A stretch of DNA of 14,244 nt from a virus (Duplodnaviria; Heunggongvirae; Uroviricota; Caudoviricetes), in IMG/VR virus record IMGVR_UViG_2859777919_000005; one strand, 5' to 3'. Within the stretch, counting starts at the first letter, position 1. Each line of letters begins with the position of its first letter. Positions 6,123 through 9,604 of the stretch are shown in pieces. The notes beneath the pieces were generated by a model, which ran no database searches, had not been told where the DNA came from, and was given only the letters and a program-made list of their open reading frames with translations. The position numbers and the translations under genes were made by a program.

Positions 6123-6283
6123 TGGAGCACCTCAAAAACACGATCATACACTAAATCAGTAAGTTGGCAGCATCACCTTTTGTCTCTATGTTGATATAAC
6201 CGTTTGTACTTATAAACCTTGAGGTAGCCTGAGTTTAACGGACACTCCTTCCTGAAATAGAATGGCATCAGAAGGAGCTAATA

Positions 6284-6586
6284 ATGAGCAGAAAAACCCA
6301 ACGTTACTCTAAAGAGTTCAAAGCCGAAGCTGTCAGAACGGTTCTTGAAAATCAACTTTCGATCAGTGAAGGCGCTTCCCGATTATCTCTTCCTGAAGGC
6401 ACTTTAGGACAATGGGTTACCGCCGCCAGAAAAGGGCTCGGTACTCCTGGTTCCCGCACGGTGGCTGAACTGGAATCTGAAATTCTGCAACTGCGTAAGG
6501 CGTTAAATGAAGCTCGCCTTGAGCGAGATATATTAAAAAAAGCAACAGCGTATTTTGCACAGGAGTCGCTGAAAAATACGCGTTAA
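6284..6586 (+). CDS. IS600 OrfA (100 aa), copy 2
   Basis: Full-length OrfA; differs from copy 1 at one residue (L versus P in RTVLENQ). Confidence 0.75.
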   Translation: MSRKTQRYSKEFKAEAVRTVLENQLSISEGASRLSLPEGTLGQWVTAARKGLGTPGSRTVAELESEILQLRKALNEARLERDILKKATAYFAQESLKNTR

Positions 6587-6623
6587 TCGAACAATGGCGA
6601 CAACAATTTCCCATTGAAGCGAT

Positions 6624-7438
6624 GTGTCAGGTATTTGGTGTATCCAGGGCGGTTATTACAACTGGGTACAGCATGAACCCTCAGACAGAAAACAAAGTGA
6701 TGAGCGGCTAAAACTGGAGATTAAGGTGGCACATATCCGCACTCGCGAAACATATGGAACCCGGCGGCTCCAGACGGAGCTGGCAGAGAATGGCATCATC
6801 GTTGGTCGTGACCGACTGGCACGTCTTCGTAAGGAGCTAAGGCTACGCTGTAAGCAGAAACGCAAGTTCAGAGCGACTACGAACTCGAACCACAATCTGC
6901 CAGTTGCGCCAAATCTGCTGAACCAGACGTTCGCTCCTACAGCACCAAATCAGGTCTGGGTGGCGGACCTGACGTATGTTGCCACACAGGAGGGATGGTT
7001 GTACCTCGCTGGCATCAAAGATGTTTATACGTGCGAAATTGTCGGCTACGCCATGGAGAGCGCATGACAAAAGAGCTGACAGGTAAAGCCCTGTTTATGG
7101 CGCTCAGGAGCCAGCGCCCACCTGCCGGGCTAATCCACCACTCTGATCGAGGTTCACAGTACTGCGCATACGATTACCGGGTCATACAGGAGCAGTCTGG
7201 TCTGAAAACATCAATGTCGCGTAAAGGTAACTGTTACGACAACGCTCCGATGGAAAGCTTCTGGGGAACGCTGAAAAATGAGAGCCTGAGCCACTATCGT
7301 TTTAATAACCGGGATGAAGCCATCTCAGTAATACGGGAATACATTGAGATTTTCTACAATCGTCAGCGTCGTCACTCTCGTCTGGGGAATATCTCCCCGG
7401 CAGCCTTCAGGGAAAAATATCATCAGATGGCTGCTTAA
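6624..7438 (+). pseudogene. IS600 orfB, frameshifted (copy 2)
   Basis: OrfB sequence is split across two overlapping ORFs (6624-7067 and 6995-7438). Confidence 0.8.
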
Positions 7439-7531
7439 AAAAAGAACAAATGGTAGTGTCCGCTATTGCCAGTACACCTCACACTCTATCCAACAAACCA
7501 CCCACAGTTAATCGGAATAAAAGCAGAGTGC

Positions 7532-7604
7532 TTATGAATGATCGCACGCCCGAAGGTTAGTATTTCTGCACAGCAATTTTGCAAAAAAAGGCGATCATTC
7601 ATAA
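7532..7604. repeat. Perfect 14-bp inverted repeat (TTATGAATGATCGC / GCGATCATTCATAA) with 45-bp spacer
   Basis: Read directly: arms at 7532-7545 and 7591-7604. The spacer contains the palindrome TTTTGCAAAA. Lies on the 3' side of the tRNA array. Confidence 0.6.
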
Positions 7605-7611
7605 CTTAAAC

Positions 7612-7657
7612 GTCTTTCAGTCACTCCGGGATTTCCCATCATCGCAGACTGAAAGAC
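7612..7657. repeat. Perfect 11-bp inverted repeat (GTCTTTCAGTC / GACTGAAAGAC) with 24-bp spacer
   Basis: Read directly: arms at 7612-7622 and 7647-7657, 6 nt beyond the 3' end of tRNA-Gly on the transcribed (minus) strand. Could form a processing or termination hairpin. Confidence 0.6.
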
Positions 7658-7663
7658 TCTGAC

Positions 7664-7738
7664 TGGAGCGGGCAGCGGGAATCGAACCCGCATCATCAGC
7701 TTGGAAGGCTGAGGTAATAGCCATTATACGATGCCCGC
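7664..7738 (-). tRNA. tRNA-Gly (anticodon UCC), glyT-like
   Basis: Reverse complement GCGGGCATCGTATAATGGCTATTACCTCAGCCTTCCAAGCTGATGATGCGGGTTCGATTCCCGCTGCCCGCTCCA folds as a cloverleaf (7-bp acceptor, D stem, anticodon stem TCAGC/GCTGA, loop CTTCCAA, T loop TTCGATT) with encoded CCA. Matches E. coli glyT from memory. Confidence 0.9.
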
Positions 7739-7741
7739 ATA

Positions 7742-7817: not shown

Positions 7818-7819
7818 GC

Positions 7820-7896
7820 TGGCCCACCACCGAGGACTCGAACCTCGCACCGTCAACTTAGAAGGTTGATGCTCTATCCGGATGAGCTAGTGGTGG
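7820..7896 (-). tRNA. tRNA-Arg (anticodon UCU), argN-like
   Basis: Reverse complement CCACCACTAGCTCATCCGGATAGAGCATCAACCTTCTAAGTTGACGGTGCGAGGTTCGAGTCCTCGGTGGTGGGCCA; acceptor CCACCAC/GTGGTGG, anticodon stem TCAAC/GTTGA, loop CTTCTAA, T stem CGAGG/CCTCG, encoded CCA. The unusual C1:G72 start makes the exact 5' boundary less certain. Confidence 0.8.
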
Positions 7897-7897
7897 T

Positions 7898-7974
7898 TGG
7901 TGGCCCTTGCTGGACTTGAACCAGCGACCTGGCGATTATGAGTCGCTCGCTCTGACCAACTGAGCTAAAGGGCC
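7898..7974 (-). tRNA. tRNA with CAU anticodon, ileX/ileZ-like (Ile2, lysidine-dependent) or Met
   Basis: Reverse complement GGCCCTTTAGCTCAGTTGGTCAGAGCGAGCGACTCATAATCGCCAGGTCGCTGGTTCAAGTCCAGCAAGGGCCACCA; anticodon loop CTCATAA. Overall close to E. coli ileX as I recall it, hence probably an AUA-reading tRNA-Ile2. Confidence 0.8.
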
Positions 7975-8062
7975 GGAGGCAGAATAATAACCATATGTCA
8001 TCACATCTGCAAACTCATCTGACCACCAGCACGTTTAACGTCCTGTGCCGTTTTTCAGGTAT

Positions 8063-8084
8063 AAAAAAACCCGCATAAAGCGGG
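8063..8084 (-). terminator. Rho-independent terminator downstream of the Q-like gene (tR'-like)
   Basis: On the minus strand: GC hairpin GCGGG-TTTAT-CCCGC (plus coordinates 8070-8084) followed by U7 (complement of A7 at 8063-8069). It lies about 80 nt downstream of the Q-like stop and about 90 nt upstream of the tRNA array, the position of tR' in lambdoid late operons. Confidence 0.7.
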
Positions 8085-8163
8085 CTCTTTCAAATGTCCA
8101 TGTCTGCTATTCGCCTCGCGGTACAGCTTTGCGAAGCGTACAAGAATTGAAGCAGTTTTTACG

Positions 8164-8718
8164 TCAAAAAGCAATAACTTTTTTCTCTATACCAAAAGCC
8201 ATAACCATTGGTTTGTACAAAATAAATTCTGCCACCTTTAGCCAATGCTCAATGCGTCTTTCACAGGTTCTTAAACTCCATTTCGGGTGTGCATCATTCA
8301 GCAGTTCAGCCATTTTGCGTTTGGTCATCCCCCGCCCCTCATACCGTTGCCGAAGGACGCTAATCAATCCTGGATGCTCTGCCAGCACCTCACTTATGAC
8401 CCGATCAATACATAACGCCTCTGCATCAGTACAATGCGCCAGCCAGCTCTTTTGCTTACCGTTAATCATATCCCGCAAAAAAGCCTCAAGTTCAGACTTG
8501 TTCAGACCTGCTTTTTTCATCCTCCGGAGCGCCTCGTTAATTGCCGTTTTTGTCAGCTTTTTAGAGGTCAACATCAGGTTAAACATATTCCCCGTCTTAC
8601 CGCCACCAATATACGACCAGCGCCCCCACATACGTAGTTTTCCCTGAATCCAGACACTTTCCAGCGTGGTGAGACGAAGGTGTTCTCCGCTTTTTCCTGT
8701 ATTCGTTGGGTAAATCAT
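8164..8718 (-). CDS. Probable late-gene antiterminator Q (184 aa)
   Basis: Start chosen at ATG 8716-8718 (SD AAGGAGGG 8 nt upstream; ATGA overlap with the upstream gene's stop) rather than the longer ORF-track start. Assignment rests mainly on position: last gene of a nin-like block, followed by an intrinsic terminator and phage tRNAs. No catalytic motif recognised; the family is not verified. Confidence 0.55.
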   Translation of the reverse strand: MIYPTNTGKSGEHLRLTTLESVWIQGKLRMWGRWSYIGGGKTGNMFNLMLTSKKLTKTAINEALRRMKKAGLNKSELEAFLRDMINGKQKSWLAHCTDAEALCIDRVISEVLAEHPGLISVLRQRYEGRGMTKRKMAELLNDAHPKWSLRTCERRIEHWLKVAEFILYKPMVMAFGIEKKVIAF

Positions 8719-9005
8719 AAATATCCCTCCTTTCTCCAGATTTCTTGTGTGCGAAAAACACCTTCTGCATGCATCAGGCGTAATTCTTCTTTGGTGTAAT
8801 CGCTGGTTTTTACCCGCCCGTCGATTAAATCGTGGCACGAGCTACAGGCAATCGCTGCCTGCATATCGTGTGGCTTTATCGCTGTTCCGCACGTTCCCGC
8901 CAGTCGGTAATGCGCCAGCACAGACGTTTCCGGATCGTGATTGCAGTAGCCAGGAATTCTGACGGTGCACATCTGCCCCCGCGCCGCTTTACGTAAATCC
9001 ACCAT
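8715..9005 (-). CDS. DUF1364 (YbcO-like) nin-region protein (96 aa)
   Basis: MVDLRKAARGQMCTVRIPGYCNHDPETSVLAHYRLAGTCGTAIKPHDMQAAIACSSCHDLIDGR... with the Cys/His pattern I recall for YbcO of the DLP12 nin region. Start overlaps the upstream stop (TAATG). Confidence 0.7.
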   Translation of the reverse strand: MVDLRKAARGQMCTVRIPGYCNHDPETSVLAHYRLAGTCGTAIKPHDMQAAIACSSCHDLIDGRVKTSDYTKEELRLMHAEGVFRTQEIWRKEGYL

Positions 9006-9604
9006 TACGCAAACTCCAGCAGCTGCGCGGCCACATTTTCGACTTGTTCCGGAGAGGAAAATTTACGGAACAGAATCCAGTTCCACAGCACATTCAGAAC
9101 AGATTTATAAACCTGCTGAAACTCGGTTTCGTCCATATTCGCAAAAGCGATGGATTTTGCCCGACGCCCGCGGCTACCGTCCGGATAAAAATGTTCGGTG
9201 TAAAATCCAGCCTGAATGGTTACCCACTCGCGAAAAGCCTCAAACGACTTTAGCAATGCCGTATCCCGGGTTCTGCGTGTCGCAACTGTATTCAGATATT
9301 GCTCTGCGGCTTCGCTCAGAGCTGGCGTATGTTCCCGACCTACTGATTCGCACAGGTAATCAACGAAACCAGACAGCAGTTCTCGTTCGCGAGGCGTGAT
9401 CGCCCCACCGACCGGAGTCCAGTAATCGAATCCCAGTTGCAGGAGTTTGAAAAAACGCTTGTGGAATGCGTAGTTACGCACACGCTTAAAGTCTGCGTGT
9501 ATCCACTCACCTGTTTTGATTTGATGCAGAAAATCGCAACTCTCCGGCGTCGCCGGGAGAAGTAATCCGGAAGAGGTTTGTTTGATCAGTTGTATATGCG
9601 CCAT
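9005..9604 (-). CDS. Nin-region protein, possibly DUF1367 family (199 aa)
   Basis: ORF MAHIQLIKQTSSGLLLPATPESCDFLHQIKTGEWIHADFKRVRNYAFHKRFF... with SD GGAGAA upstream; translationally coupled to the DUF1364 gene. Family assignment from memory only. Confidence 0.45.
   Translation of the reverse strand: MAHIQLIKQTSSGLLLPATPESCDFLHQIKTGEWIHADFKRVRNYAFHKRFFKLLQLGFDYWTPVGGAITPRERELLSGFVDYLCESVGREHTPALSEAAEQYLNTVATRRTRDTALLKSFEAFREWVTIQAGFYTEHFYPDGSRGRRAKSIAFANMDETEFQQVYKSVLNVLWNWILFRKFSSPEQVENVAAQLLEFA

Follow-up and report, generated by a model that had tools for sequence, protein, structure and literature searches.

A Rac-type prophage remnant of Shigella sonnei, probably dismantled by insertion sequences and carrying an inverted late-control segment

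How do a Q-like antiterminator gene, a terminator and four tRNA genes of lambdoid type come to face insertion sequences (IS) and a hok/sok locus where lysis genes would be expected? We addressed this question for one stretch of 14,244 nt (IMG/VR record IMGVR_UViG_2859777919_000005; hereafter the window), in which about 7.1 kb of phage DNA is interleaved with about 7.2 kb of IS DNA (7168/14244 bases, 50%). An earlier note, made from the letters alone, had described a lambdoid late-control module whose lysis and structural genes were replaced by IS600 and IS1, and had proposed that deletion and inversion mediated by IS elements reduced a prophage to a cryptic remnant. Comparison with S. sonnei chromosomes and with two relatives, FDAARGOS_944 (L001) and the enteroinvasive Escherichia coli (EIEC) strain CFSAN029787 (L003), bore out this deletion and inversion. 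We conclude that the window is very probably what is left of a Rac-type lambdoid prophage at ttcA, now cryptic and dismantled by IS-associated deletions and by the flip of one segment.

Besides L001 and L003, the comparison included another relative (L002), ten S. sonnei chromosomal loci (L004-L013, of which L007, L011 and L013 are of the 53G type and L008 is CP146298.2), CP049181.1 (L014) and a 1972-bp contig found in 8 samples (L015). The exact DUF1367 protein of the window is present in many chromosomes, and their loci are 99.9% identical to the window; they include HE616528, which is S. sonnei 53G, and CP014099, which is S. sonnei FDAARGOS_90 (PMC5447701). From this 99.9% colinearity we take the window to be an S. 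sonnei chromosomal locus.

Orientation of the late-control segment

The Rac-type origin is marked by the integrase gene. Window positions 1-491 (minus strand) hold a 3' fragment of intR encoding the C-terminal catalytic domain (Pfam Phage_integrase, E 1.1e-13), which is 100% identical to annotated intR of EIEC genomes, and ttcA is adjacent in L003 and in the S. sonnei loci; intR thus lies at the ttcA attachment site, as in Rac-type prophages. In L003 the full prophage of about 44 kb is placed between sitD and ttcA. One of its strands carries the tail fibre, baseplate, tail, head and terminase genes, Rz/lysozyme/holin, four tRNAs, DUF1133, DUF1364, DUF1367, hok, replication genes and cro, and the other strand carries the repressor, recE, xisR and intR. 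The early block of L001, at 99.75% identity, is found directly upstream of a gene for a hypothetical protein (hyp), DUF1367, YbcO, Q, the tRNAs and holin, all on the same strand. In both L001 and L003, one strand carries the whole run from hok through hyp, DUF1367, YbcO, Q, the terminator and the tRNAs to holin/lysozyme/Rz, head, tail and tail fibre, and intR is on the other strand beside ttcA. In this native state the tRNAs point towards holin, and hok is found upstream of Q.

The window holds the same late-control genes on a 2412-bp segment of the minus strand (7482-9893: hyp, DUF1367, YbcO, the Q-like gene, the terminator and four tRNAs), colinear with L001, L002 and L003. Its left edge is IS600 copy 2 (6220-7481, plus strand) and its right edge IS600 copy 3 (9894-11066, minus strand), of which 87 bp of the left inverted-repeat (IRL) end are missing. 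In all ten S. sonnei loci, window positions 1-6224 align forward and 6220-9893 align in reverse, both alignments ending at the same base; for the three 53G-type loci the reverse alignment is found only from 6666, the IS600 being interrupted there. To the left of this breakpoint, which we call site X, the window keeps a 42-bp stub (6178-6219, plus strand) of the native sequence before the 70-aa hyp gene, ending in AAACCT. The ten S. sonnei chromosomes have no IS600 at site X, and the empty site, printed for six of them (L004, L005, L007, L008, L010 and L013) and for L001, reads AAACCT GGAG GCATCGTG, where GGAG is the ribosome-binding site and GTG the start codon of hyp.

In the window, AAACCT is joined to IS600 copy 2, and IS600 copy 3 is joined to GCATCGTG at the other end of the segment; in sequence, the two joints are AAACCT followed by TGAGGTAGCC and CACCTCA followed by GCATCGTGG. 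The joint on the tRNA side, in which GGATAGAGTG meets the right inverted repeat (IRR) of IS600, is common to 53G and L009, where it shows a GTG duplication and has holin immediately behind it. Since that joint leads to holin in 53G and L009, and since site X lies beyond copy 2 in the window, the junction between copy 2 and the second IS1 copy (IS1b; 5411-6177, minus strand) is the inversion joint. The flip of 7482-9893 brings the tRNAs against IS600 copy 2 and IS1b and makes them face hok. The flip also places Q and intR on the same strand, and so accounts for the integrase fragment on the Q strand that the earlier note had pointed out. As read from these joints, this lineage has gained one IS600 copy, and the hyp-to-tRNA segment lying between two inverted copies has flipped.

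The replacement described in the earlier note could also be taken literally, the lysis and structural genes having been deleted exactly at 7481/7482, with copy 2 and IS1b physically in their place. The tRNAs of the window do run directly into copy 2 and IS1b without lysis genes in between. Nevertheless, the tRNA-IS600 joint has its GTG duplication and holin next to it in 53G and L009, the missing genes map beyond copy 3, and the sequence beyond copy 2 is the natural upstream neighbour of hyp, all of which makes a deletion at this junction highly improbable.

Even less credit, close to none, is due to the idea that the arrangement is native to some lambdoid phage and reflects module shuffling instead of IS damage. 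Lambdoid genomes are mosaic, as exemplified by a gene for an ORF6N-domain protein between Q and the terminator in L001 that the window does not have, but the breakpoints coincide with IS600 ends to the base, S. sonnei sisters at 99.9% identity have the native order, and the junctions are shared by no phage or E. coli record. Alignment to the intact or near-intact homologues L001 and L003 likewise revealed none natively arranged like the window. Probes of 180 bp over both inversion joints found neither joint in any record of the E. coli complete genomes, one seeming match being two pieces that the tool had joined, and a scan of GTDB species representatives for the joint between IS600 and the tRNA flank gave 0 matches. 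A programmed invertible segment of the Pin/Gin/Hin type was rejected: no invertase or resolvase was found among the scanned window proteins, and the inverted repeats are whole IS600 copies.

Most S. sonnei genomes have the segment un-inverted, and the inverted state recurs in three complete chromosomes, one of them L014. An open reading frame (ORF) of 77 aa, reported by gene callers, spans the junction of IS600 and hyp in these three chromosomes and in contig L015; in the window it starts at 9909, where the IS600 right end offers an in-frame TTG. The L014 sequence is colinear with window positions 1679-14244, in the same orientation and with identical junctions. The extra IS600 at site X could be used as a lineage marker, and the 77-aa fusion ORF is usable as one.

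Deleted blocks and IS elements

The window holds four IS600 copies, recognised by a length of about 1264 bp, inverted ends TGAGG...CCTCA, orfA (HTH_Tnp_1) and orfB (rve); RefSeq labels the matching element IS600. Copy 1 (492-1755, minus strand, 1264 bp) is intact and cuts intR, and copy 4 (11740-13000, plus strand) adjoins a truncated tail-fibre gene. The 3-bp target duplication typical of the element is missing from the window: the flanks of copies 1, 2 and 4 do not match, and copy 3 is truncated at its left end, so that its flanks are not comparable. Absence of duplications, which had been claimed for every IS600 copy and for IS1b, therefore stands for copies 1, 2 and 4 and for IS1b. The same IS600 sites in 53G and L009 carry 3-bp duplications, CTA and GTG, so the window copies are recombinant or non-canonical, although they are IS600 beyond doubt. 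The outer joint of copy 4, IRR next to GCCGTCTGG, is also found in 53G and L008.

Copy 1 marks a deletion of about 12-13 kb, from the middle of intR to the 3' end of DUF977, with which the immunity and replication genes are gone. Its equivalent in 53G is a simple insertion with the CTA duplication at the DUF977 3' end, and replication and immunity genes are present upstream. The second large loss, from holin to the tail fibre, amounts to about 23.7 kb as measured on L003. The loss of lysis and structural genes was correctly noticed, but it is not situated at the tRNA-side IS600/IS1 junction; it lies beyond copy 3, where the IS21 fragment and copy 4 follow and where the tail-fibre gene has been truncated some 0.6 kb into its length. 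Of the structural genes, only the 3' part of the tail-fibre gene and DUF4376 survive (13001-14244, plus strand; Pfam DUF4376, PHROG tail fibre). This stub matches the intact EIEC prophage at its tail-fibre end with 97% identity, and sitDCBA is next to it in relatives.

The S. sonnei strains differ mainly by which of the IS-bounded blocks are lost. In the 53G locus the lysis cassette persists together with a terminase fragment, and IS600 meets the tail fibre at the same joint as in the window; L009, like 53G, still has the lysis cassette (holin, lysozyme, Rz) behind the tRNA-side IS600, and L008 represents the deleted form without the flip. We considered and rejected selection for the retained tRNAs and hok, as there is no evidence for it and the S. 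sonnei strains keep different IS-bounded blocks.

Beyond about position 13400, loci L004-L006, L010 and L012 show, behind the tRNA-side IS600, no genes of this prophage; a tail region of lambda-like type (Phage_min_tail, tail L, K and I, GpJ, Lom) comes in their place. This order suggests a larger IS600-mediated rearrangement that joined two prophages.

Between copies 3 and 4 we found a 673-bp internal fragment of IS21 istA (11067-11739, minus strand), which matches annotated IS21 istA at 99.9% identity and hits the Pfam families for rve and the Mu-transposase C-terminal domain. The two IS600 copies that enclose the fragment, one truncated and one full, are in inverted orientation, and the fragment is reversed in L008 (13388-14066) relative to the window. 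A second small inversion, through recombination of the flanking IS600 copies, could explain the L008 flip and is consistent with this layout.

Two IS1 copies complete the set. As expected of IS1 (768 bp, insA/insB, target duplication of about 9 bp), the first copy (IS1a; 1895-2662, minus strand) is a simple insertion, here with the 10-bp target duplication AAGATGAGTT around it. IS1b has no duplication, and 132 bp of L001 (12308-12439) are absent beside it; the site looks like an IS1 adjacent deletion. The state of IS1b, with no duplication and the 132-bp loss, is common to all S. sonnei loci examined.

The Q-like cassette, its tRNAs and the early side

The minus-strand Q-like gene, terminator and tRNAs reported earlier are all present, the terminator now being placed at 8063-8087. 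The Q-like gene (8164-8718, minus strand; longest ORF reaching 8838) encodes a DUF1133 protein of 184 aa (E 3.8e-107) that also scores above the cut-off for PF06530 Phage_antitermQ (28.4 bits, cut-off 26), falls into PHROG 753 'anti-termination protein Q-like' (1.8e-79) and is weakly similar to the phage 21 Q structure 6P18 (E 4e-4). By homology it is a putative lambdoid Q-type antiterminator. Its position agrees, upstream of a terminator and of the lysis and late operon: in L002, L003 and 53G/L009 the tRNAs are followed by holin/lysozyme/Rz.

The intrinsic terminator, a candidate tR' (8087-8063, minus strand), starts 77 bp past the Q stop codon and reads AGAGCCCGC-UUUAU-GCGGGUUUUUUU, a GC-rich hairpin with a tract of seven U. 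It folds at -18.4 kcal/mol (z = -5.2; 0/200 shuffles fold as well), and its sequence is invariant in relatives. A simple consensus scan for promoters and terminators overlooked it, and folding confirmed it. Downstream of the terminator, 10 bp upstream of the first tRNA, lies a promoter-like site, TTTGCA-18-TATTAT (8013-7984, minus strand), with 9/12 consensus matches. The site is invariant in L001, L003 and L007; the whole scan gave no more sites than shuffled sequence, and we therefore regard it as a candidate only.

The four tRNA genes, all on the minus strand and found by both ARAGORN and Rfam (56-70 bits), are a CAU tRNA (Met/Ile2; 7898-7974), tRNA-Arg(UCU) (7820-7896), tRNA-Thr(UGU) (7742-7817) and tRNA-Gly(UCC) (7664-7738). 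The four are identical in L001, where PGAP names the CAU tRNA tRNA-Ile. In L003 the fourth tRNA (28188-28259) has a UAC (Val) anticodon on the body of the window's tRNA-Gly(UCC), and L002 also annotates a tRNA-Val. The L003 gene departs from that of the window by a C-to-A substitution in the anticodon, an A-to-G substitution close by and the loss of 1 bp towards the 3' end; it would be either an anticodon-switched or a decaying tRNA.

In a comparison with L001 9703-10653, the ORF6N-domain gene of L001 separates Q from the block of terminator and tRNAs, and some 120 bp at the end of Q are unalignable there. From about 8178 as far as the tRNAs the sequence does not vary, even in genomes that have ORF6N before it, and the mosaic boundary falls at window positions ~8178-8285. 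Thus, the terminator and tRNAs move as a module independent of the Q allele.

Upstream of Q, the segment carries a putative YbcO/DUF1364 nuclease gene (8715-9005, minus strand; Pfam E 7.7e-45, HNH PHROG), the DUF1367 gene (9005-9604, minus strand; Pfam E 2.9e-96), named irsA in phage Rac records, and the 70-aa hyp (9676-9888, minus strand), whose GGAG ribosome-binding site is replaced by the IS600 end. The designation 'nin genes' given to this part was a positional label; DUF1367 belongs to a PHROG cluster named 'NinB/Orf', and YbcO is placed in an HNH PHROG.

On the other side of copy 2 and IS1b, the convergent plus-strand early module with hok was found as described. This delayed-early module (2663-5410, plus strand) is in native orientation and 99.75% colinear with L001 15190-12440. 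Family scans (Pfam, PHROG, Rfam) identified DUF4014 (3096-3314), an HNH endonuclease (ORF 3226-3681) and DUF551 (4343-4708), all on the plus strand, and the module also encodes a 221-aa protein (3678-4343, plus strand). The sok/hok locus (4994-5318, plus strand) consists of a Hok/Gef peptide gene (PF01848, E 1.7e-21) and an overlapping sok RNA (Rfam RF01794, 118 bits against a gathering threshold of 59), as in type I toxin-antitoxin systems. It is a complete locus in the prophage early region, and its position is kept in intact relatives.

Route of the flip and relation to known systems

Several results weigh against our reading of the window as a Rac-type remnant with a flipped cassette. The inverted and un-inverted structures share the same four unique/IS junctions, so the orientation depends on assemblies only. 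Copies 3 and 4 are mutually inverted, so that one crossover between them yields no deletion and does not account for the 23-kb loss. The consensus scan found no sigma-70 promoter (pR') between the Q stop codon and the terminator. With neither pR' nor qut found, antitermination at 8087-8063 is presumed, and of the pR'-tR' architecture proposed for this region the terminator past Q and the order in relatives hold, the promoter was not found, and the label itself comes from position and relatives only. Finally, the IS600 gained at site X came with the loss of 4 bp (GGAG) and no 3-bp duplication, an outcome predicted by no standard pathway.

The shared junctions could mean that the orientation is an assembly choice, the true state being an IS600 insertion at site X in native orientation or a population mixed by IS600 recombination. 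The four junctions would be the same in either structure, and the window contains errors of the long-read type. In all 10 cases in which it differs from L014, the window has a deletion at a homopolymer or a CCAGG (Dcm) motif (5775, 6648, 7054, 10729, 12091, 12164-12167 and 13554), the signature of long-read basecalling error. The window therefore probably derives from a long-read assembly spanning the 1.26-kb IS, which long reads easily do. Furthermore, three other complete chromosomes carry the junction ORF with mostly the same neighbours, and the one examined, L014, has the same orientation; we consider an assembly choice unlikely. Short reads cannot type the inverted versus un-inverted state, as all unique/IS junctions are shared. 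The same errors probably account for the split transposase ORFs of IS1b and of IS600 copies 2, 3 and 4 and for the fusion that gives a tail-fibre ORF of 419 aa (12985-14244), which would all be artefacts and not pseudogenes.

For the Rac-type remnant with a flipped cassette, we propose the following course. Going by gene order and by what is known of the family, early transcription of the intact phage would run rightward across the hok module to hyp, DUF1367, YbcO and Q. The Q-like protein would then let RNA polymerase past 8087-8063, first into the rare-codon tRNAs (AUA, AGA, ACA, GGA) and next into the lysis genes (holin, lysozyme, Rz) and those for head and tail. An S. sonnei ancestor would have received canonical IS600 insertions between the tRNAs and holin (GTG) and at the DUF977 3' end (CTA). 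Later, the intR-to-DUF977 deletion of about 12-13 kb would have removed immunity and replication, and about 23 kb from holin into the tail-fibre gene would have been lost, leaving IS600, the IS21 fragment and IS600 behind. In this lineage only, an extra IS600 would have arrived at site X just upstream of hyp, and the 2412-bp hyp-to-tRNA segment would have flipped. The cassette is now separated from its early promoter and from the late genes, and hyp has no ribosome-binding site. We infer that the only plausible leftover activities are tRNA expression from the candidate promoter, hok/sok, and Q acting in trans on other prophages; the tRNAs may be expressed from the conserved promoter-like site past the terminator.

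The flip itself may have arisen by insertion of a new copy in inverted orientation and later homologous recombination or by a one-step, non-canonical intramolecular IS600 event, and we hold the two to be about equally likely. With 4 bp lost and no duplication at site X, neither route fits its textbook outcome. Checked on the flanks, simple insertion with recombination and Shapiro-type replicative inversion each predict a 3-bp duplication at site X, which is absent. The 4-bp loss would also result from two nearby insertions in the same orientation, at a distance of 7 bp, and a subsequent crossover; we set this aside as unparsimonious. Insertion targeted to an inverted repeat was not relied on either, the target TGGAGGCA being only loosely like the IS600 end TGAGGTA.

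In the one-step version, the tRNA-side IS600 would have attacked site X in the same molecule, duplicating the IS and inverting 2.4 kb. The topology is that of a duplicative inversion, with the old tRNA-IRR joint on the new copy and new joints between the left side of X and IRL and between IRR and the right side of X. The junction is non-canonical in its 4-bp loss and lack of duplication, and no genome with an un-inverted IS600 at site X was found, although only the three chromosomes with the junction ORF could have shown one. On the other hand, replicative inversion should leave inverted 3-bp duplications, which are absent, and few genomes of this lineage are sampled. Moreover, IS3-family elements are understood to move by copy-out/paste-in through a circle and not by Shapiro-type replicative transposition. 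We give the one-step event somewhat less than an even chance. If true, it would be a natural 'duplicative inversion' by an element that is not known to move other than by copy-out/paste-in. The fuller proposal, that a single non-canonical step removed GGAG and produced both the additional IS600 and the 2.4-kb flip, and that the inverted copies now make the cassette a reversible, recombination-driven switch, is doubtful.

Decay of prophages by IS600 and IS1 of this kind is already known in Shigella, for which IS-associated inversions of 0.7-400 kb and defective prophages have been reported (PMC7819885). The present locus offers a worked example of such dismantling at base level, with one small puzzle, an IS600 junction minus 4 bp and without target duplication. 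The stages can be followed in public genomes, from the intact EIEC prophage through 53G with its lysis and immunity blocks to the deleted form and the deleted and inverted form of the window.

The closest known systems are the Rac cryptic prophage of E. coli, the prophage of EIEC CFSAN029787 and phage Rac-SA53, which have the same intR and ttcA site; the irsA(DUF1367)-ybcO-q block is shared with Rac-type prophages at 85-97% DNA identity. Compared with a full-length Rac-type prophage, the window keeps about 7 kb of phage DNA, while immunity, replication, lysis and morphogenesis are gone and the late-control block is inverted and IS600-bounded. The late regions of Shiga toxin (Stx)-converting and other lambdoid phages (Q, pR', tR', tRNAs, in some cases stx, lysis) show the same order of Q, terminator, rare-codon tRNAs (with a CAU tRNA annotated as Ile among them) and holin as the intact relatives, and Stx2-converting phage records share the tRNA stretch of the window at about 90% identity. 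In contrast to such late regions, the window has no toxin genes, its Q is of the DUF1133 type, pR' and qut were not identified in it, and downstream no target of regulation remains. The non-inducible Stx prophage of S. dysenteriae 1, with IS600 upstream of stx, is likewise IS600-bearing and non-functional, and IS-associated inversions are described from about 700 bp upwards (PMC7819885). That case concerns another prophage in another species, whereas the inversion in the window is lineage-specific and involves an extra IS600 without target duplication.

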